A stretch of DNA of 64,000 nucleotides from NCBI GenBank assembly GCA_037200925.1, contig JBBCGO010000001.1, positions 601,607 to 665,606 of the forward strand, in the 5' to 3' direction. Source of the stretch: Candidatus Doudnabacteria bacterium (lineage in GTDB: Bacteria; Patescibacteriota; Doudnabacteria; UBA920; O2-02-FULL-48-8). Shown piece by piece: positions 4,061 to 63,300 of the stretch (its first letter is position 1; every line of letters starts with the position of its first letter). The notes under the pieces were generated by a model. That model did not search any database, had not been told where the DNA came from, and saw only the letters and a program-made list of their open reading frames with translations. The position numbers were made by a program, and so were the translations under genes.

Positions 4061-6069
4061 ATGAAGATTGCTATGAAATTCCAGCTTCAATCCGAATTCA
4101 AACCGGCTGGCGATCAGCCGCAGGCAATAGAAAAACTGATCAAAGGCCTGGAAAAAAAATACCGCTACCAAACCCTGCTTGGCGTCACCGGCTCAGGCAA
4201 GACTTTTACCATGGCCAATGTCATCCAAAAGATCCAGAAACCGACTCTGATCATTTCCCATAATAAAACTTTGGCAGCGCAACTGGCGAGCGAGTTCCAG
4301 GATTTCTTTCCGGAAAACGCCGTGCATTACTTTGTCTCTTACTATGATTACTACCAGCCGGAAGCTTACATCCCCCGCTCTGATACTTACATTGAAAAGG
4401 AGACCGAGATCAATGAAGAAATAGATAAATTGAGAAACGCGGCCACGCAAAGTCTGTTGTCGCGCAAAGACGTGCTCATCGTCGCGTCCGTATCTTGCAT
4501 TTACGGCTTGGGCAATCCGGCCAATTATCTGGAGCTGTCCATGCCCATCAAAACCGGGGAAACTTTTAAGCGCGATAAGTTCCTGCGGCGCCTGACGGAC
4601 CTGCAATTCATGCGCAACGACGTCAACCTGACCCGCGGCACGTTCCGCGTCCGCGGCGATGTGGTGGAACTCATCCCGGCTTCCGCGGACAAGATCCTGC
4701 GCCTGAATTTCAATGGCGACGAGATAGAAAAGATCTCGGAGCATGATCCACTCACCGGCCAGGATTTCGGGGTTCATGAGGAAATAACTATTTTCCCAGC
4801 CAAGCATTTCGTCACGCCCAAAGAAAAATTATTCGCAGCCATCGGCAACATTCGCAATGAACTGGCCGATCAGGTCAAATTTTTCAAATCCCAGGATAAA
4901 CTTGTTGAAGCCCAGAGAATTGAACAGCGCACCAATTTTGACATTGAAATGATGCTTGAAACGGGCTTTGTGGCAGGCATTGAAAACTACTCCAGGCAAC
5001 TGGATTTCCGCAAACCCGGCGAGCCGCCGTCCACGCTGCTGGATTATTTCCCGGATGATTTTTTGCTGTTCATTGACGAGTCGCATATTACCGTTCCCCA
5101 GATCGGCAGCATGTACCTCGGGGATCAGTCGCGGAAAAAAAACCCTCATCGATTACGGCTTCCGTCTGCCGTCTGCCGCTGATAACAGGCCTTTGCAATT
5201 TGAAGAGTTTGAGAAAAGGATCGGCCAGACCATCTTTGTTTCCGCAACACCGAACAAAGAGCGGGAATTGGCTGTTTCCAAGCAAGTGGCCGAGCAGCTC
5301 ATCCGGCCGACCGGACTTTTGGACCCGGAAATAGAGATCCGCCCGACGAAAAACCAGATCGACGACCTTATGGAAGAGATCCAAAAAAGAGTTAAACAAA
5401 AACAGCGCGTACTGGTAACGACATTGACCAAAAATATGGCGGAAGAACTGTCCAACTATTTGGTTGAATACGGCATCCGCGGACAATATCTGCATGCGGA
5501 CATTGAAACCCTGGAGCGGCTGGAGATCCTGCGCGACCTGCGCTTGGGAGTTTATGATGTGGTCGTGGGCATCAATCTTTTGCGTGAAGGATTGGACCTG
5601 CCGGAAGTTTCCCTGGTCGCCATCCTGGATGCGGACAAGGAAGGCTACTTGCGTTCAGAAACTTCGCTCATCCAAACCATGGGCCGGGCCGCCAGGCACG
5701 TGGATGGCCACGTCATTATGTATGCGGACAAGATCACCGGCTCCATGCAGCGCGCCATGGATGAAGTAACCCGCCGCCGGAAGATCCAGCAAGACTACAA
5801 TAAAGAACACGGCATCACTCCTGCCGGGATCATCAAAGGCATCAAAGAAACGCGCCTGGCCGGCATGAAAGTCGCGGAAGAAAAAACAGTCGGACGAGAT
5901 GGATCTGAGCAAAATGAGCAAGCAGGATATCGCCTATGCCATTGAAGAACTGCGGGACCAGATGGACTTGGCTGCGCGCAACCTGGATTTTGAAAAAGCC
6001 GCGTCTCTTCGCGACCGCATCACCGCCATCCGCGCCAAAACGCGGATGAAAAAACATAAATTCAAATAA
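4061..6069 (+). CDS. uvrB: Excinuclease ABC subunit B, split into three frames by two homopolymer indels at about 5135-5142 and 5881-5886
   Basis: The ORF contains GVTGSGKTF and [10 protein letters not shown], then continues as [15 protein letters not shown] in a second frame. The C-terminal UVR domain ([22 protein letters not shown]...[13 protein letters not shown]) lies in a third frame. Confidence 0.85.
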
Positions 6070-12085: not shown

Positions 12086-13225
12086 CTAAATTGTGCTTTT
12101 GAACTTCGTCACTTCCTTGCCAAGGAGGGCCAAAATCTGTTTTTCAGTATTAACCGCCGAATCCGGGACCGTAAATTTCACGGCCTGCGCAGTTACCTCA
12201 TCGGAGTGAAATTGGCTGAACAAACCGGTCAAATTCAGGGGGATCAAGGTATGGCAAAACACTGTCGTGCTGGTTGCCGATTCTTCCTTCAAGAACAAAA
12301 AGATCTTGGCAAAGGAGAGCTGCGAAACCATTTCCTTAATGATCCCCTTCGCGTCCTCTTCAGAAGCGCCGGCCTTAACCAAGTCCGATTGGTTAACCAC
12401 GGAATAAACAAGCAGATTATCAAAATCTTGTTTGAGCCTGGCCAAAACCCTCCCCCATAACTTCAACAGGCCCAAACTCTTGCTCTTATACAAATGCCCG
12501 ACGATCTCCTGCTGATTGGCGCCCAAAGACACAAGCTGGGAAGCCTTGAGGAATGTCTGGGGAGTTGTCCTAATATGCTGGAAGCTGTTGGTCTCAGTAA
12601 TAATTCCGGTCAGCAGCTGTGTAGCGATGTTCTCATCGAGCAGGCTGCTTTCAAATTTATTGATCAGATCCAAAATAATTTCCGATGCCGAGGTCGCGGT
12701 CAGGTCCACGAAATTCAATTGGCCGTAATTCTCGTTGCTGCCCCTAAAATCAATGTTCAGGATCGGGGTTTGGAAGAACAATTGTGCGTTCTGGCTGTAA
12801 AATTCGCCTAGCTGTTCCAGACTTGAAATGCCGATCAGGGCCACCAGCTCAAATGGAAAAGCGGAAGTGTCAAAAGAAATGTCATCAGTGCTAAATTCTC
12901 CTTTTTTTGGCTTGATATAGATAGAGAGCTGGTCCGAATTTTTCTTATAGCTCAATTCCGACATCTGGGTTCTGTTCGTGGCAACATTTATGACCAAGCT
13001 TTTGGTAAGATCGATCCGGGTTATCACTTCGGAATAATCGGGCAAAAAATCAAACCGGGAAGATACTTCCGTAAAGCTTAACAGAGTGACTTCTTTTTCC
13101 AATTTTTTCAGAAACGCCCGCAAAGCCAAAGAAGCCGATAAACCATCGCCGCTTGAGCCTGCGGCAATGATCAGAATGTTTTTGGCCTGGGAAATTTTGG
13201 CAATAATTTGCTGGGGTAGATCCAT
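12086..13225 (-). CDS. DHH/DHHA1 phosphoesterase-like protein (NrnA-like) with catalytic motifs apparently degenerate
   Basis: The overall NrnA-like architecture is present, but GSSGDG replaces the DHH metal-binding residues. Confidence 0.5.
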   Translation of the reverse strand: MDLPQQIIAKISQAKNILIIAAGSSGDGLSASLALRAFLKKLEKEVTLLSFTEVSSRFDFLPDYSEVITRIDLTKSLVINVATNRTQMSELSYKKNSDQLSIYIKPKKGEFSTDDISFDTSAFPFELVALIGISSLEQLGEFYSQNAQLFFQTPILNIDFRGSNENYGQLNFVDLTATSASEIILDLINKFESSLLDENIATQLLTGIITETNSFQHIRTTPQTFLKASQLVSLGANQQEIVGHLYKSKSLGLLKLWGRVLARLKQDFDNLLVYSVVNQSDLVKAGASEEDAKGIIKEMVSQLSFAKIFLFLKEESATSTTVFCHTLIPLNLTGLFSQFHSDEVTAQAVKFTVPDSAVNTEKQILALLGKEVTKFKSTI

Positions 13226-16143: not shown

Positions 16144-17185
16144 ATGGCGATTGAAACCAATGACATTGAAATAGACATCATCAGCCCGGCTCCCGTTTCT
16201 GAAGAAACGCTGTTTGAGGCAACTCTCCGTCCCCAAAAACTGTCGGACTACGTCGGTCAGGAAAAGATCAAAGAAAATTTGAAGATTTTGGTTGATGCAG
16301 CATCCGCCCGCAACGAAACATTGGAGCACATTCTGCTTTACGGACCTCCCGGCCTCGGCAAAACCACGCTCGCCCATATCATCGCCCGCGAGATCGGCTC
16401 CAACATCAAGATCACTTCAGGTCCGGCCATTGAAAAAGCCGGAGACCTCGCTTCTCTGCTGACCAATCTGACCGAGAACGACGTATTGTTCATTGATGAG
16501 ATCCATCGCCTGAATAAAACCGTGGAAGAAATTCTTTACCCGGCGATGGAAGATTATTGCCTGGACATCGTGCTCGGCAAAGGAGCCGGGGCCAAAGCGC
16601 TGCGTCTGGATCTGCCGAAGTTCACGCTGATCGGCGCCACCACCAGGATCGGCCTTTTGACCGCACCCTTCCGCGACCGGTTCGGCATGACTTACCGGCT
16701 GGACTATTATGAAGAGCCGGAGATCGGACAGATCATTGAGCGGGCGGCCAAAATTCTGAATATCAAGATCGATGAGATGGGCAAACAGGAAATTGCCAAG
16801 CGCGCCCGGCGAACTCCCAGGGTGGCTAACCGCCTGCTCAAACGCGTCCCGCGATTTTGCCCAAGTCAAAGCCGGTGGTAAAATTAATCAGTCAGTGGCG
16901 CAGCAGGCGCTGGCCCAGCTGGAGGTTGACGATCTGGGCCTCGACGGCAACGACCGCAGGATCCTCCTGGCGCTGATCGAAAAATTTGCCGGCGGCCCGG
17001 TCGGCATCTCCTCTATTGCCGCCGCCACTTCTGAAGACGCAGGCACGATAGAAGAAATTTATGAGCCGTATCTGCTGCGGCTCGGATTGATCGCGAGAAC
17101 CCCCAAGGGCCGGGTGGCCACGCCTGCCGCATATGACCATCTTAAGAAACCTTTGAAAAAAACAGAGATACAAACACTGTTGTAA
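16144..17185 (+). CDS. ruvB: Holliday junction helicase RuvB, frameshifted by an extra C near 16848
   Basis: The motifs [14 protein letters not shown] and LFIDEIHRL are present. The winged-helix C-terminus LLKRV|[10 protein letters not shown] is in the shifted frame. Confidence 0.9.
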
Positions 17186-17193
17186 AAATTCTT

Positions 17194-17418
17194 ATGACCG
17201 CTTACCAACCAACCTCGCTGGGGCGCCACAATTTTAGCCTTAGTATTTTATCTGCTCATGGCCGGGTTTGCGTTATACAGTCTTTTGGCCGTTTATGCGC
17301 TTATCCGCTTCGGCCAGTCGAAGGTTCTGGCATTCATTGTTTCATTCCTATATTTGCTAATTTCGGCCAGCTTATACGCTGCCGCGGTCATCAATCTCAA
17401 TGCCATTAGATTTTAAAC
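17194..17418 (+). CDS. Small two-TM membrane protein, frameshifted at a G-run near 17220
   Basis: The frame-2 translation GATILALVFYLLMAGFALYSLLAVYALIRFGQSKVLAFIVSFLYLLISASLYAAAVI is hydrophobic and stop-free. Confidence 0.3.
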
Positions 17419-17969
17419 ACAGGATCTTATTTCCGGGCCAGCAGGAAAACGAAGAGATCTGTCTGGTCGTGCGCGAACACTGGATGGTCTTCTTTTTTCG
17501 TCTCTTCGCGTGGCTGTTATTTGCAGCTATTCTGCTGCTGTCGAGTTGGGCGATCAATAGTTTTGCTCCGGTGTTAAATACCATGCCTTATCTCGGATAT
17601 GTCAATTTAATTAAAAGCGTCTATTTCATGTTTCTGATGCTGGGCCTTCTGATGATCTGGATAATTTATTATTTAAATGTGCAGATCATAACCGATGAAC
17701 GCGTAGTGGATATTGTCCAGGAATCTTTGATCAGACGAACAGTTTCCGAGCTTCACTTAAGCAGAGTGGAAGACGTTACCCTCCGATGTATCGGGAATTT
17801 TCGGCACTTTTCTTGATTATGGCAACGTATACATTCAAACTGCTGGCCAAACGGAACGGTTCACTTTCTCGCGCGTGCCCAATCCCGCCCGTATTGAAAA
17901 ATTGATCCTGGATCTGTACGAACAGCTGCCGGATACGGAAAAAATCAACAAAGGACCGTTGAAAAAATA
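17400..17969 (+). CDS. Bacterial PH-domain (DUF304/YdbT-like) membrane protein, frameshifted near 17790
   Basis: Two TM helices are followed by a PH-like region that continues in the next frame (YRGIFGTFLDYGNVYIQTAGQTERFTFSRVPNP). Confidence 0.55.
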
Positions 17970-22472: not shown

Positions 22473-22799
22473 CGCGTCGCTTTCAATTCAAAGTGATTGT
22501 TTGTCCCTTGGCCACACTTTGAATTGTTAAATTAATAGCTTATATAAATGTCAACGATTTATTCTAACAGATAAGTTATCAACATGTAAATATAAAAATT
22601 TTGGCTAATTTAAGCCAAAAAAAAGCTATCATGTTAATATCATGTGGATTATGCGTGTATTAAATGTATAAAGCCGGCGTTTAGGTTAAAACAGATGACA
22701 AAAAAGTCTTGATATAGTATAATCATGAAGTTAATAATACAAAAAATTTGAATCGCAGGAATGTCTGACGTTCCCAAGAACAAATTTTGAGATACGACG
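22473..22799. other. Candidate oriC / divergent promoter region between dnaA and rpmH
   Basis: The region is AT-rich. It contains near-consensus DnaA boxes TGTGGATTA (about 22643) and TTATCAACA (about 22576), and a U-type palindromic element at 22741-22791. Confidence 0.5.
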
Positions 22800-36693: not shown

Positions 36694-36835
36694 GGGAAAT
36701 TTAGGATACCAAATTCACATAAGCAACCATATCAGAATTATGTCCAATGGTCAATCTTAGCATGTGGATTGTTTGTGGGGTAATTTATTAGTCTTTAAAA
36801 AAAGACTAAAAAAAGCTATAATATTATTAATTCAC

Positions 36836-36885
36836 GAAAAAACTGAGTCGCAGGCGCAAAGGCGCCGAGAACAGTTTTTTCGAGA
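36836..36885 (+). repeat. U-type palindromic element (A5-CTGAGTCGCAG-hairpin-GAGAACAG-T6-CGAGAG)
   Basis: It has three further copies, at 22741, 57274 and 57422. The outer and inner stems covary between copies. Confidence 0.7.
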
Positions 36886-36950: not shown

Positions 36951-37024
36951 GGCGTCATGGCCGAGCGGTTAGGCAGAGGTCTGCAAAACCTTTTACACCG
37001 GTTCAACTCCGGTTGACGCCTCCA
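36951..37024 (+). tRNA. tRNA-Cys (GCA)
   Basis: The sequence folds into a cloverleaf with acceptor GGCGTCA/TGACGCC, anticodon loop CTGCAAA and T-arm ACCGG-TTCAACT-CCGGT. It ends with a discriminator T followed by CCA. Confidence 0.8.
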
Positions 37025-37029
37025 ATAAA

Positions 37030-37116
37030 GCCTGGGTGGCGGAACTGGCATACGCATGGGACTTAAAATCCCAGGCCCGCAAGGGATTGAGGGTTCGATT
37101 CCCTCCCCAGGCACCA
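37030..37116 (+). tRNA. tRNA-Leu (TAA)
   Basis: The acceptor is GCCTGGG/CCCAGGC and the anticodon loop is CTTAAAA. It has a long variable arm, the T-arm GAGGG-TTCGATT-CCCTC, and ends ACCA. Confidence 0.9.
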
Positions 37117-37326
37117 GAAATCGGAATCGAAGGGCAGAAGTGAAGCGAAGCTGAACGTCGACGAATGCGAGCAAGCGCAGCATTCGGCGCTGCCCCGGAC
37201 AGATTCCCTCCCCAGGCACCAGAAATCGGAATCGAAGGGCAGAAGTGAAGCGAAGCTGAACGTCGACGAATGCGAGCAAGCGCAGCATTCGGCGCTGCCC
37301 CGGACAGATTCCCTCCCCAGGCACCA
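37117..37326 (+). repeat. Two perfect tandem copies of a 105-bp unit, each an 85-bp structured D element plus an exact copy of the last 20 nt of tRNA-Leu
   Basis: The units at 37117-37221 and 37222-37326 are identical. Each ends gattccctccccaggcacca, matching tRNA-Leu 37097-37116. Confidence 0.85.
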
Positions 37327-37350
37327 GATTGATATACTATAACCATAACC

Positions 37351-39723
37351 ATGAATAAGAAAAATAAAATCTCCGCATCCAGTAAGAAAACCCTTAAGCT
37401 TAAAGTTTTAGCCAAGGAAAAGGAAGGTATCAGGCGCAGACTGGCTGTGACCGCAGGCAAACTTCGCCTTAAAGCCGAAAAACTTGCAGTGACGGCCAAA
37501 AAAAAGGAAAGCGTCAGGCGCAAGCTGGCCGTGAGGGCTAAGAGGCTTCCTATTAAAGCCGAAAAGTTGGCGGTAACAGCCAAAGAAAAGGAAAGTATCA
37601 GACGAAGGCTGGCTGTGACCGCAGAGAAACTTGCCATTACTGCCAAGGAAAAAGAAAGCATCAGGCGCAACCTGGCTGTGACCGCAAGACAACTTGCCAG
37701 AACAGCGAAAGAAAAAGAAAGCGTTCGGAACAAGCTGGTGGTAACGGCAGAGAAACTTGCTATAACAGCTAAGGAAAGAGAAAGCATCAGGCAAAATCTT
37801 GCCGTAACCGCCAAGGAAAAAGAAAGCGTTCGGAACAAGCTGGTGGTAACGGCAGAAAAGCTGGCTGTGACCGCCAAGGAAAAAGAAAGTGTGAGGCGCA
37901 ATTTGGCTGTGACCGCCAAGGAAAAAGAAAGCGTTCGGAACAAGCTGGTGGTTACTGCTAAAAAGCTCGCAATTACCGCCAAGGAAAAAGAAAGCGTTCG
38001 GAACAAGCTGGTGGTAACGGCAGAAAAGCTGGCTGTGACCGCCAAGGAAAAAGAAAGTGTGAGGCGCAATTTGGCTGTGACCGCCAAGGAAAAAGAAAGC
38101 GTTCGGAACAAGCTGGTGGTTACTGCTAAAAAGCTCGCAATTACCGCCAAGGAAAAAGAAAGCGTTCGGAACAAGCTGGTGGTAACGGCAGAGAAACTTG
38201 CTATAACAGCTAAGGAAAGAGAAAGCATCAGGCAAAATCTTGCCGTAACCGCCAAGGAAAAAGAAAGCATCAGGCGCAACCTGGCTGTGACCGCAGAGAA
38301 ACTTGCCATTACTGCCAAGGAAAAAGAAAGCATCAGACAGAACTTGGCAGTGACAGCCAAGGAAAAAGAAAGCATCAGACAGAACCTGGCTGTGACTGCC
38401 AAGGAGCTTGCCGTAACCGCCAAGGAAAAAGAAAGCATCAGACAGAACTTGGCAGTGACAGCAAAAGAAAAAGAAAGTATCAGGGAAAACCTGGCAGTGA
38501 CAGCAAAAGAAAAAGAAAGTATCAGACAGAACCTGGCTGTGACAGCAGAAAAACTGGCCGTGACTGCCATAGAAAAAGAAACAATGATCGCCAGTATCGG
38601 GGAGGGGCTTATTGCTACCGATGAAAAAGGAATTATTACCGTTATAAATAATACGGCTGAAAAACTGCTTGATATTAAAAGCGAAGAAGTTATAGGAAAA
38701 GTTTTTTCCGAAGTGATCCCTATGGAAGACGAAAAAGGAGCATCAATTCCGCCCCAAAAACGTCCTATGATCATGGCTTTGACAGCCGGTACGACTACCA
38801 GCACAACAACAGAGGGCGCAAGCTATTATTACGTGCGGAAAGACAAAACAAAATTTCCGGTCGCAATGGTGGTGACGCCTATTATTCTTGACAGCAAGGT
38901 CATCGGGACCATTGAAGTTTTCCGTGATATCACGCGGGAAAAAGAAGTTGACCGGGCTAAAAGCGAATTTGTGTCGCTTGCTTCTCATCAGCTCCGCACT
39001 CCGCCCACGAGCATGAAATGGTTTTTGGAAATGCTGCTTTCCGGTGAGGTCGGAGAATTAAACGAAAAACAGAGAGAATATTTCGAAGAGGTGTATAGGA
39101 ACAATCAGCGGATGATAACCCTTGTTAATACACTGCTTAATGTGTCGCGGATCGATCTTGGTGTGTTCGCCATTCAGCCCGAACCAACCGACGTAGTAGC
39201 CCTCACCAAGGGAATAATTGAAGAAATGAACCCGCAAATACACGAAAAAGAATTGCGCGTGAATGAAAAATATTCGAAGAACCTTCAAAAGATTTTCGTT
39301 GATCCGAAACTCATAAGCATCGCGATACAAGATGTTGTCAGCAATGCGGTGAAATATACGCCGCCGAAAGGAACTATTGATGTGGAGATCTCCTTGAAAC
39401 AAAACGGTGAGAGTATCGGAGGCCGATTGATCAAAAAAGACAGTTTGGTCGTATTTATATCGGACACCGGCTACGGTATTCCCAAAGACCAGCAGGATAA
39501 GATCTTTACCAAGCTTTTCCGCGCTGACAATGTGAAAGAAAAGGATACGGACGGGACAGGATTAGGGCTGTACCTGGCCAAGTCTATCATTGACCACGCC
39601 CAAGGGAATATTTGGTTCGAGTCTGAACTGAACAAGGGATCGAAATTCTATCTTACGATCCCGCTCGAAGGCATGAAGAAAAAAGAAGGAATAACAAAGA
39701 TCACCAGCGGTTCTACCGGTTAG
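37351..39723 (+). CDS. Cytoplasmic sensor histidine kinase with about 400 aa of N-terminal near-identical coiled-coil tandem repeats, then PAS, HisKA and HATPase domains
   Basis: The H-box SHQLRTP is present, with the N/G boxes (DTGYGIP, GTGLGL). A PAS domain carries a Thr-rich insert. The N-terminal region consists of 14-aa LAVTAKEKESVRRN units. Confidence 0.8.
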   Translation: MNKKNKISASSKKTLKLKVLAKEKEGIRRRLAVTAGKLRLKAEKLAVTAKKKESVRRKLAVRAKRLPIKAEKLAVTAKEKESIRRRLAVTAEKLAITAKEKESIRRNLAVTARQLARTAKEKESVRNKLVVTAEKLAITAKERESIRQNLAVTAKEKESVRNKLVVTAEKLAVTAKEKESVRRNLAVTAKEKESVRNKLVVTAKKLAITAKEKESVRNKLVVTAEKLAVTAKEKESVRRNLAVTAKEKESVRNKLVVTAKKLAITAKEKESVRNKLVVTAEKLAITAKERESIRQNLAVTAKEKESIRRNLAVTAEKLAITAKEKESIRQNLAVTAKEKESIRQNLAVTAKELAVTAKEKESIRQNLAVTAKEKESIRENLAVTAKEKESIRQNLAVTAEKLAVTAIEKETMIASIGEGLIATDEKGIITVINNTAEKLLDIKSEEVIGKVFSEVIPMEDEKGASIPPQKRPMIMALTAGTTTSTTTEGASYYYVRKDKTKFPVAMVVTPIILDSKVIGTIEVFRDITREKEVDRAKSEFVSLASHQLRTPPTSMKWFLEMLLSGEVGELNEKQREYFEEVYRNNQRMITLVNTLLNVSRIDLGVFAIQPEPTDVVALTKGIIEEMNPQIHEKELRVNEKYSKNLQKIFVDPKLISIAIQDVVSNAVKYTPPKGTIDVEISLKQNGESIGGRLIKKDSLVVFISDTGYGIPKDQQDKIFTKLFRADNVKEKDTDGTGLGLYLAKSIIDHAQGNIWFESELNKGSKFYLTIPLEGMKKKEGITKITSGSTG
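37411..38566 (+). repeat. Coding tandem repeat with a 42-bp unit (14 aa = 2 heptads), about 27 copies, and higher-order 168-bp near-perfect duplications
   Basis: Identical blocks such as gtgaggcgcaatttggctgtgaccgccaag recur at 37891 and 38059. Confidence 0.9.
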
Positions 39724-57241: not shown

Positions 57242-57273
57242 ATAAGATTTGGTATAATAGGATTTCTAAGACC

Positions 57274-57325
57274 AAAAAATTGAGTCGCAGTCCCGATTTA
57301 TCGGGACGAGAACAATTTTTTTGAG
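57274..57325 (+). repeat. U-type palindromic element (A6-TTGAGTCGCAG-TCCCGAtttaTCGGGA-CGAGAACAA-T7-GAG)
   Basis: It belongs to the same family as 36836, 57422 and 22741, and abuts tRNA-Phe. Confidence 0.7.
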
Positions 57326-57403: not shown

Positions 57404-57421
57404 AAGAATATAAGGAATTAC

Positions 57422-57467
57422 AAAAAATTTGAGTCGCAGGCCGAAGGCCGAGAACAAATTTTTTGAG
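57422..57467 (+). repeat. U-type palindromic element (A6-TTTGAGTCGCAG-GGCCgaaGGCC-GAGAACAAA-T6-GAG)
   Basis: It is followed by a roughly 65-nt leader homologous to the one preceding tRNA-Cys. Confidence 0.7.
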
Positions 57468-57533
57468 AGGAGCGACGACCAGACCGTAGCACTTTTACGG
57501 GGTAAAATGCGAAGCGTCTGTCAGTCGCGACGA

Positions 57534-57607
57534 GCGGGTATGGTTCAGTGGTAGAACATTGCCTTGCCAAGGCAGAGATGCGGGTTCGATTCCCGCTACC
57601 CGCTCCA
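57534..57607 (+). tRNA. tRNA-Gly (GCC)
   Basis: The acceptor is GCGGGTA/TACCCGC and the anticodon loop is CTTGCCAA. It ends with a discriminator T followed by CCA. Confidence 0.85.
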
Positions 57608-57617
57608 AAAGAAAGTG

Positions 57618-57646
57618 CTCCATATGAGGTGATGGAGTTTTTTTTT
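57618..57646 (+). terminator. Terminator hairpin CTCCATatgaggtgATGGAG followed by T9
   Basis: A GC/AT stem and a long T-run lie directly after tRNA-Gly. Confidence 0.6.
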
Positions 57647-57777
57647 GGAATCGAACGGGCAGAAGCGAGACGAGGCATCAGCCGAAGTCGAGCGTCGATG
57701 AAAGCGAGCAAGCGCAGCTTTCAGCGCTGCCCCGGGCAAGGCGCATTAGCGCCGCGGAATTCCCGCTACCCGCTCCA
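57647..57777 (+). repeat. D-type structured element homologous to the 37117 units, followed by a 19-nt exact copy of the tRNA-Gly 3' end (attcccgctacccgctcca)
   Basis: The conserved blocks are GGAATCGAACGGGCAGAAG...GCGAGCAAGCGCAGC...GCGCTGCCCCGG. The inner stem TGAAAG/CTTTCA here corresponds to CGAATG/CATTCG in the Leu copies. Confidence 0.8.
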
Positions 57778-57780
57778 AAG

Positions 57781-57812
57781 AAAAAATCCGACCATAATGT
57801 CGGATTTTTTCT
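57781..57812. terminator. Bidirectional terminator AAAAAATCCGACCataatGTCGGATTTTTT
   Basis: A perfect hairpin is flanked by an A-run and a T-run. Confidence 0.65.
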
Positions 57813-63194: not shown

Positions 63195-63300
63195 GCGTCA
63201 GGACGCTCGGGCATTGCAAAAAAAGACGTCCGCTGAAGCGGACTAAGGCTCACCGCATTGGAAAGCGGTTCGCAATTCTTTTTTCTGCAACACCCTCGCT
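63195..63300 (-). repeat. Element 'B': an inverse-orientation homolog of element A (27-nt box at 63274-63300 as reverse complement, plus hairpin GTCCGCttcaGCGGAC with a T-run)
   Basis: The 27-mer matches 41420-41446 exactly. A conserved downstream block and terminator-like hairpin are present. It lies immediately downstream of tRNA-Pro. Confidence 0.45.

Follow-up and report, generated by a model that had tools for sequence, protein, structure and literature searches.

What are the short repeated segments that follow two tRNA genes in a Candidatus Doudnabacteria genome, each ending in a copy of the 3' end of the tRNA gene before it? The segments lie in a 64,000-nucleotide (nt) stretch of contig JBBCGO010000001.1 (assembly GCA_037200925.1, positions 601,607 to 665,606; the whole stretch is hereafter the window), two of them in tandem past a tRNA-Leu gene and one past a tRNA-Gly gene, and an earlier, sequence-only reading had offered two explanations for them: a miniature non-autonomous element aimed at the 3' ends of tRNAs, or a structured RNA that shares the transcript of the tRNA operon. 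We found that the three copies are members of an RtT-like 'tRNA-tail' element family of Patescibacteria that is uncatalogued in Rfam 15. Both of the proposed explanations survive our analysis, and the evidence suggests that they are two faces of one thing.

At the first locus, tRNA-Cys(gca) (36951-37024, + strand, as are all window features in this and the next paragraph; ARAGORN, Rfam tRNA model at 62.8 bits) is the first gene of an operon that continues with tRNA-Leu(taa), which carries a UAA anticodon (37030-37116; ARAGORN and Rfam); a consensus scan weakly indicates a promoter-like site, TTTAAA-17-TATAAT, upstream of the operon (36794-36822). The last 20 nt of tRNA-Leu (37097-37116), running from G57 in the T-loop to the CCA, form the first copy of a direct repeat. 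Past them stand unit 1 (37117-37221) and the identical unit 2 (37222-37326), and the perfect 105-bp tandem that the earlier reading had noticed was recovered with Tandem Repeats Finder (37097-37328, period 105, 2.2 copies, 100% identity) and by the covariance model R1 introduced below, which matched both units (98.7 bits for unit 1). The proposed division of the unit into an 85-bp element and a 20-nt tail holds for the tail, which in each unit (37202-37221 and 37307-37326) is GATTCCCTCCCCAGGCACCA, an exact copy of tRNA-Leu 37097-37116, but the 85 bp resolve into a 6-nt spacer (37117-37122) and a 79-nt core (37123-37201). Past the CCA, the identity continues for 2 further nt (GA). Unit 1 has the short form of the element and folds into helices P1 (37123-37128/37202-37207), P2 (37132-37137/37190-37195), P3 (37140-37156) and P4 (37159-37189). 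Because a scan found no terminator-like site from tRNA-Leu through both units up to the ATG of a histidine kinase gene at 37351, the Leu units would be transcribed together with tRNA-Leu, as part of the operon transcript.

The layout described for tRNA-Gly (terminator, element, exact tail copy) was confirmed as well. Here the direct repeat begins in tRNA-Gly(gcc) (57534-57607; ARAGORN and Rfam), whose last 19 nt (57589-57607) run from A58 to the CCA. Terminator A, a hairpin followed by T9 that was identified by a terminator scan (57617-57646), separates the tRNA from a long-form element of 131 nt (57647-57777; R1 at 126.5 bits, consensus fold and covariation), which the T-run of the terminator abuts and whose tail (57759-57777) is an exact copy of the 19 nt. 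The element comprises P1 (57647-57651/57759-57763), P2 (57657-57662/57727-57732), P3 (57665-57693), P4 (57696-57726) and P5 (57740-57753), and the alignment of the Leu and Gly copies contains all the shared blocks, the GGGCAG/CTGCCC stem and the fully compensated inner stem that had been reported from the letters. This copy is single, with unique sequence on both flanks. A second terminator (terminator B, 57781-57810) follows, and it is this one, not terminator A, that is orthologous to the terminator found directly 3' of tRNA-Gly in the element-free relatives L004, L011 and L015 (L numbers designate the loci compared). The inserted segment therefore consists of terminator A, the core and the tail, an arrangement in which the Gly element would be made only through terminator read-through.

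Related copies were sought in two sets of sequences, namely 41 Doudnabacteria-like loci fetched by a synteny scan with a neighbouring S1 protein and metagenome contigs scanned with the 5' motif GGAATCGAA(N)GGGCAGAAGNGA, a scan that returned 58 loci. The 5' motif was used since exact-pattern scans with the P4-P2 block, GCGAGCAAGCGCAGCNNNNNNGCGCTGCC, gave no match in genome or metagenome contigs, this block being characteristic of a subtype only; likewise, a sequence-only nhmmer profile of the three window copies matched only those copies in the 41 Doudnabacteria loci. Covariance model R1, built from 41 copies (alignment A3), gave 61 matches in the fetched loci, whereas over the window and its 41 related loci it matched only the three window copies and L007, whose tRNA-Gly carries a homologous element. 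In general, the element is an 80-165-nt module on the tRNA strand, 6-70 nt past the tRNA gene and usually behind a terminator. It begins with GGAAUCGAAC, the antisense of the T-loop, which the earlier reading had recognized in the window copies and which proved to be present family-wide; a conserved multi-helix core follows, and the 3' tail duplicates the tRNA. Long-form elements lie 43-69 nt past the tRNA, behind a terminator, and the short form, without P5, lies 6-18 nt past it. Elements occur at 13 anticodons of nine tRNA specificities (Gly, Leu, Glu, Trp, Pro, Lys, Cys, Met and His). The hosts named for some of the contigs are Patescibacteria group and Kerfeldbacteria/Parcubacteria, and two further copies lie in Moranbacteria. 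In other assemblies of other organisms there is a single copy in L065 and there are perfect or diverged arrays in L126, L064, L052, L090, L028 and L025; as these assemblies are independent, tandem iteration is a trait of the family. The same layout also occurs with different cores in relatives (L025/L035, L028/L029 and L031), and degenerate copies were found in L009 and L041.

Several of these other core types deserve a description of their own. In L126 (1816-2016), a perfect tandem array of 2.7 units of 74 bp stands past tRNA-Glu(ctc) and reaches the contig end, each unit consisting of an A-rich spacer, GGGGTTC, a 32-nt hairpin insert and GATTCCCCGTAGCGCTAC, the tRNA 3' end from G57; the unit thus amounts to a T-arm interrupted at T-loop position 56/57, another core type with the same logic. 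A type with a conserved loop, GAAUACUUGGAG, and compensated stems occurs in L025 (15600-15860 on the - strand and 16816-17480 on the + strand) and in L035, with four to five diverged tandem units past tRNA-Leu(gag) in L025-type arrays. The type shared by L028 and L029 is present as two units in the former (12500-12868, - strand) and as one in the latter.

How closely are the tails tied to the tRNA genes that they follow? When copies of the last 16 nt of each tRNA (at most 2 mismatches) were searched for within 1 kb downstream on the same strand, 12 were found among 195 tRNAs of 42 related loci, compared to 0 in each of three control placements; the tail-copy layout is not due to chance. The sequence-only reading had asked for a covariance-model count and for a check of cognate tails; beside the 61 matches, 27 of 46 tails agree with the tRNA 9-69 nt upstream at 15/16 positions or better (16/16 in 23 copies, 15/16 in 4), whereas the 25 nt past the tail are identical in only 3 copies and otherwise near random. 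The tail follows the changes of its own tRNA in three homologous pairs: the tRNA-Gly elements of the window and L007, those of L066 and L087 (CTA versus CCA), and the tRNA-Leu elements of the window and L065, which differ in the acceptor stem. The left edge of the direct repeat always falls within positions 55-61, either inside the T-loop or where the T-stem begins. Its right edge is variable, giving repeats of 17-57 nt, although it is usually the tRNA end (discriminator or CCA), with a tail of 17-22 nt; in three copies (L052, L064 and L090), the repeat runs for 46-57 nt, through the spacer or terminator.

The elements are gained and lost. Empty sites, in which tRNA-Leu(taa) and tRNA-Gly(gcc) run directly into a terminator, are found in most of the 41 loci, so that an element may be present or absent at orthologous tRNAs; arrays form, and copies decay. 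In L083 and L058, a gene that encodes no recombinase lies between the tRNA and the element, and in L058 a foreign tail and a terminator stand just upstream of the core.

There are also indications that the tRNA genes themselves turn over. In L012 (12057-12190), tRNA-Cys is followed by a truncated second tRNA-Cys, and in L120 (1570-1660) a stretch of 49 nt that begins in the T-loop and reaches into the terminator is missing from tRNA-Glu, L118 and L119 being otherwise identical. In L031 (~5000-5340, - strand), a tRNA-Ile(tat) gene flanked by a 13-bp inverted repeat, GCCCCGCACCTTT/AAAGGTGCGGGGC, is nested in a second tRNA-like gene, replacing its anticodon arm; past this outer gene stands an element whose tail copy measures 21 nt.

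Does the element fold, and if so, on which strand? In the consensus structure, P1 is formed by the 5' motif and the portion of the tail that derives from the T-loop and T-stem (GGAAU pairing with AUUCC; in the short form, 8 bp, GGAAUCGA/UCGAUUCC) and leaves the acceptor 3' strand and CCA as a 3' overhang, P2 (GGGCAG/CUGCCC) is invariant across the family, P3 and P4 are covarying hairpins enclosed by P2, and P5 is an optional hairpin. The covariation that had been read from three copies, and that might have vanished with more of them, instead persists and strengthens: standard pairs occupy 95.9% of cells in both the MAFFT and the model-based alignment, against 83-85% in shuffles (85.4% and 82.6%, respectively, with 0/500 reaching the observed value in either case), and slid controls show ~40% pairing in both alignments. 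Cells changed on both sides number 109 versus 30 in shuffles for the MAFFT alignment, and 168 versus 42 for the model-based one. Helices P1-P5 are thus supported by covariation across the family. Among the mismatches, G-U/U-G outnumber A-C/C-A by 60 to 11 (p = 2.6e-9), an excess indicating that it is the tRNA-sense strand that folds; the frequent GGAA and cUUCGg loops, in P3 and P5, point to RNA rather than duplex DNA.

The tRNA-specific (acceptor) part of the tail showed no pairing with any internal element column in a column search. In some copies, P1 is lengthened, by up to 9 bp in L090, through complementarity between the tail and the nucleotides immediately 5' of GGAAU, and the mean extension of 1.72 exceeds the 1.01 of shuffles (0/2000). 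It is longer at tRNA genes that lack an encoded CCA (2.9 versus 1.0, p = 0.008, a value not corrected for phylogeny), which fits a need for a paired, acceptor-like helix in endonucleolytic 3' processing. In thermodynamic folds of whole transcripts, the tRNA 5' acceptor strand pairs with the distal tail, for which the predicted pairing is about equal to that with the proximal copy, so that the duplicate could compete with the genuine tRNA 3' end; co-transcriptional folding would favour the tRNA over such distal pairing.

Given these properties, the explanation that we lean towards, albeit tentatively, is that the elements are a non-autonomous passenger RNA repeat, co-transcribed with the tRNA, provided with a borrowed tRNA-type 3' end, and amplified and homogenized by recombination between tails. 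The family, the structure of the tRNA strand, the cognate tails, and the gain, loss and decay of copies are directly supported, and a selfish repeat is the simplest reading of them. In this scenario, the module would share the transcript of its tRNA, which at tRNA-Leu runs straight into it and at tRNA-Gly would have to read through the terminator, and the duplicated tRNA 3' end would let the tRNA 3'-maturation enzymes define and protect a 3' terminus, possibly yielding unit-length RNAs by analogy with the rtT RNA of E. coli. The tRNA 3' end and the tail would at the same time serve as short direct repeats, at which unequal recombination or slippage could lead to tandem amplification or deletion, the two perfect 105-bp units of the window being a visible candidate example, and the same recombination would keep the tail matched to the evolving tRNA. 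The weakest step is the colonization of new tRNAs, for which the near-universal T-loop sequence might anchor an event, such as a double template switch or break repair, in which the target is copied from the T-loop up to the point of insertion.

Several points weigh against this explanation. Unpaired core sequences are strongly conserved and P2 never covaries, which suggests a specific partner or activity that a passenger model does not name. Homogenization of 17-22-nt repeats by recombination is an assumption of the model, and the creation of a new cognate tail at a new tRNA is a putative step. Many copies are 3'-truncated or have decayed tails, and an orphan copy in L083 keeps a tail that mismatches the nearest tRNA; truncated, decayed and orphan copies are unexpected for a needed RNA. 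Finally, levels of the element RNA may be low, since a conserved promoter was not seen and since most members of the family, the Gly copy included, are separated from their tRNA by a terminator.

A trans-acting RNA that functions for the host is an explanation that we consider unlikely, and in which the core would bind a protein or be catalytic, the single-stranded tail and the 5' T-loop antisense would be the working part, and the identity of the tail would be kept by selection. Such an RNA might be an acceptor-end mimic or decoy for a nuclease, toxin or modifying enzyme, or might pair with tRNA 5' strands or the tRNA gene. It agrees with the tracking of acceptor-stem changes by the tail in the three homologous pairs, with junction sequences and P2 that are invariant while P3 and P4 covary, with folding of the tRNA-sense strand and RNA-type tetraloops, with an acceptor part that is unpaired inside the element, and with the predicted pairing of the tRNA 5' acceptor strand to the distal tail. 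It sits poorly with the patchy distribution, seen even in close relatives, in which one tRNA may carry different core types, with the many truncated or decayed copies, and with the lack of a conserved promoter or neighbour gene (save a weak association with GIY-YIG genes); moreover, tail identity can be explained by repeat recombination, of which the perfect tandem of the window is an instance. An RNA-based mobile or RNA-directed system, which we regard as improbable, would make of the core a catalytic or protein-recruiting scaffold and of the tail and 5' motif the address of the cognate tRNA gene or transcript; acting perhaps with the GIY-YIG nucleases that abut tRNAs, it would copy itself beside tRNA genes or act on tRNAs by base pairing.

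Mechanisms at the DNA level were weighed against the same observations. Duplication of a tRNA 3' end had been noted as the classical footprint of a tyrosine integrase, and a recombination site, either a CIME-like mini integrative element or a folded single-strand attachment (att) site as in integron attC and CTX phage attP, would explain the tail as the displaced original tRNA 3' end (attR), with a tyrosine recombinase acting in trans and a crossover in the tRNA T-loop. The span of the direct repeat, from the T-loop to the tRNA 3' end, is that of what is generally known as the T-loop class of tRNA-integrating elements; the P1 duplex recreates the T-loop/T-stem sequence of the tRNA gene, with a perfect inverted copy of up to 19 nt in L090; some arrays contain diverged units; cargo genes lie between tRNA and element in L083 and L058, the latter with its foreign tail and terminator upstream of the core; and GCGAAGC-type mini-hairpins are stable in DNA too. 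By eye, ATCGAAC and the T-loop GTTCGAT match the attC consensus RYYYAAC/GTTRRRY at 6/7 positions each, the right arm lacking GTT. The footprint interpretation itself did not stand, and a recombination site appears quite doubtful: the insert has no open reading frame (ORF), no integrase or other recombinase is linked to, in or beside the elements in the loci examined, no kb-scale islands bounded by tail repeats occur in the 41 loci, no copy was found in viral contigs (motif scan) or in phages or plasmids (blastn), where no matching attP was seen either, and the repeat, its right edge being variable, measures anything between 17 and 57 nt. In addition, an element with its own tail would leave only its cognate tRNA intact on entry, yet related cores occur at many different tRNAs per lineage, and RNA accounts at least as well for the cUUCGg/GNRA loops and for the 60:11 excess of G-U. 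A scar or filler of break repair would instead arise if the GIY-YIG homing endonucleases encoded by small free-standing genes that abut tRNAs cut tRNA genes, and template switching then copied a core from another locus and duplicated the tRNA from the T-loop on. GIY-YIG ORFs of 79-94 amino acids abut or overlap the tRNA 5' end in 7/8 sampled families, and they occur at 5 element-bearing metagenome loci as against 2 ORFs among 195 tRNAs of 41 unselected loci, one of those two being in the L007 tRNA cluster whose tRNA-Gly carries an element; the order in L118-L120 is GIY-YIG, tRNA-Glu, two elements; the edges resemble microhomology, the left falling anywhere in positions 55-61 and the right often past the terminator T-run; and the 49-nt deletion in L120 runs from the T-loop into the terminator. 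About 90% of the elements nevertheless have no GIY-YIG gene nearby, and the window has none, the cleavage specificity of these proteins is only presumed, and a structure that persists and covaries over phylum-level distances would not be compatible with random filler, all of which makes this origin improbable. Lastly, an assembly artefact, which had been named as a possible refutation, or chance similarity is extremely improbable for the element, found as it is in dozens of independent assemblies, with a single Gly copy flanked by unique sequence and with clean chance controls. It concerns only the copy number at tRNA-Leu, where a perfect 105-bp tandem cannot be reliably counted from short reads and where the count of two units comes from one assembly, the Logan contig (the only other assembly from the same sample) breaking just before the locus, ~20 nt short of tRNA-Cys.

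Some further candidates were tried and rejected. Priming from a mature tRNA does not agree with the tails of CCA-less genes, which lack CCA, or with repeats that enter the trailer, and in an opposite-strand tRNA gene or functional T-arm the stems are not kept (judged by eye). A TnpB/omega-like guide RNA would target the intact tRNA of the same genome, and no nuclease gene is linked; this candidate survives only as part of the RNA-directed system considered above. For a MITE or other transposase-mobilized repeat, the only inverted repeat is P1, whose right arm lies inside the tail, and the repeat length is unfixed, at 17-57 nt.

The genes and repeats around the elements have features of their own. 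GIY-YIG ORFs of 79-94 amino acids have >7,700 homologues, mostly in Patescibacteria; in 7/8 sampled families they are found directly 5' of a tRNA, in the same orientation, or share up to 9 nt with it, and in the eighth beside a tmRNA-like gene. They were found in L007 (9314-9556), L038 (12864-13103), L056, L058, L077, L099 and L113-L130, and are enriched at element-bearing tRNAs. A second small repeat occurs four times on the + strand of the window (22748-22795, 36830-36880, 57270-57325 and 57420-57475) and is composed of an A-run, TGAGTCGCAG, a variable hairpin, GAGAACA and a T-run, its outer and inner stems both being compensated; the 5' leader or the spacers of tRNA operons contain three of the copies, before tRNA-Cys, tRNA-Phe and tRNA-Gly, and those before Cys and Gly have a further ~70 nt in common. 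It was not found in the 41 related loci and has no Rfam match. Past the tRNA-Pro(cgg) terminator (63200-63290, - strand), a long hairpin, TTGCAGAAAAAAGA...TCTTTTTTTGCAA, surrounds two smaller hairpins; it has no tail copy and does not belong to the R1 family. The histidine kinase gene directly 3' of the Leu units (37351-39723) has a long N-terminal region with 42-, 63-, 105- and 168-bp tandem repeats (37574-38547), and, there being no terminator in between, may belong to the transcript of the tRNA operon. In L007 (6465-6729), an 87-amino-acid ORF without a Pfam hit occupies a 555-bp gap between tRNA-Cys and tRNA-Leu, which are adjacent in the window; it has a homologue in L087.

How does the family compare with known systems? 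The earlier reading had not recognized a described element class, and in part this stands. Scans of Rfam, both at the gathering score and relaxed to E ≤ 10, returned only tRNAs and sub-threshold noise, with no match to self-cleaving ribozymes, tmRNA, Y RNA, T-box or introns, and literature searches on tRNA-linked Patescibacteria RNAs, the motif sequence, partial tRNA repeats and GIY-YIG with tRNA gave no description of the element. Att sites of tRNA-integrating islands and phages (T-loop class) and integrase-less CIMEs have the same T-loop-to-3'-end direct repeat, arrays that arise by repeated insertion, and occasional cargo, whereas the inserts of this family measure 80-165 nt, have neither integrase nor phage or plasmid counterpart, and show a variable right edge and a covarying single-strand structure. 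Integron attC, CTX phage attP and REPIN/MITE repeats likewise combine conserved structure with variable sequence, have pairing ends and are non-autonomous, and P1 of the family mimics the duplex target sequence. The family differs from them in its strict link to tRNA 3' ends, its tRNA-specific tail, the lack of a fixed target-site duplication and a copy number that is apparently a few per genome region, not hundreds; an enzyme of the IntI or RAYT type was not found for it, although no genome-wide IntI search was made. Group I introns in Patescibacteria tRNA genes, which lie at anticodon loop position 35/36, exceed 200 nt and are self-splicing (bioRxiv 10.1101/2025.07.03.662931), are also selfish structured RNAs in or at the tRNA genes of the same phylum, but the Rfam intron models miss our elements and that study is silent on T-loop or 3'-end elements. 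Together with these introns and the tRNA-abutting GIY-YIG genes, the family matters for the very small genomes of Patescibacteria, in which each retained non-coding element calls for explanation.

The part of the earlier claim that does not stand concerns E. coli, in which the tyrT-tyrV operon has the same architecture. Its 178-bp units each end in AATCCTTCCCCCACCACCA, the 19 nt of the tRNA-Tyr 3' end from A58, and are present as 3.1 tandem units plus one between two tRNA genes; in the Rfam RtT model (RF00391), the structure is closed by GGGGAAGGAU/AUCCUUCCCC, with CCACCA unpaired. Both RtT and the window family thus lie directly 3' of a tRNA on the same strand, consist of units whose last nucleotides exactly reproduce the tRNA 3' end from within the T-loop on, close an outer helix by pairing an upstream segment with the T-stem portion of this duplicate while leaving the acceptor/CCA end unpaired, and occur as tandem units. 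The E. coli rtT RNA is generally described as released from the tRNA transcript. Its mode of action has been stated to be unknown (bioRxiv 10.1101/2024.07.17.603846). There is no similarity by sequence or covariance model in either direction, as RtT has no hit at E ≤ 10 (gathering score 45 bits) and R1 misses the E. coli units. The RtT core is ~160 nt, compared to 80-165 nt in the window family with its 5' GGAAUCGAAC and P2 GGGCAG, and RtT is confined to tRNA-Tyr in Enterobacteria, whereas the window family occurs in Patescibacteria at no fewer than nine tRNA specificities, usually behind a terminator. The window element is therefore built like RtT without being a member of RF00391. A decades-long unexplained oddity of one E. 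coli tRNA operon now has a counterpart of the same design in a different phylum, which turns a single case into a comparative problem with dozens of diverged copies, many tRNAs and clear covariation, and contributes a candidate RNA family as well as a marker for how plastic tRNA loci are. Three questions have thereby become approachable, namely the reason for copying a tRNA-type 3' end, the means by which the copy remains identical to the tRNA, and the role of the conserved core, and the family, widespread, clearly structured and as yet uncatalogued, gives comparative leverage on the RtT problem.

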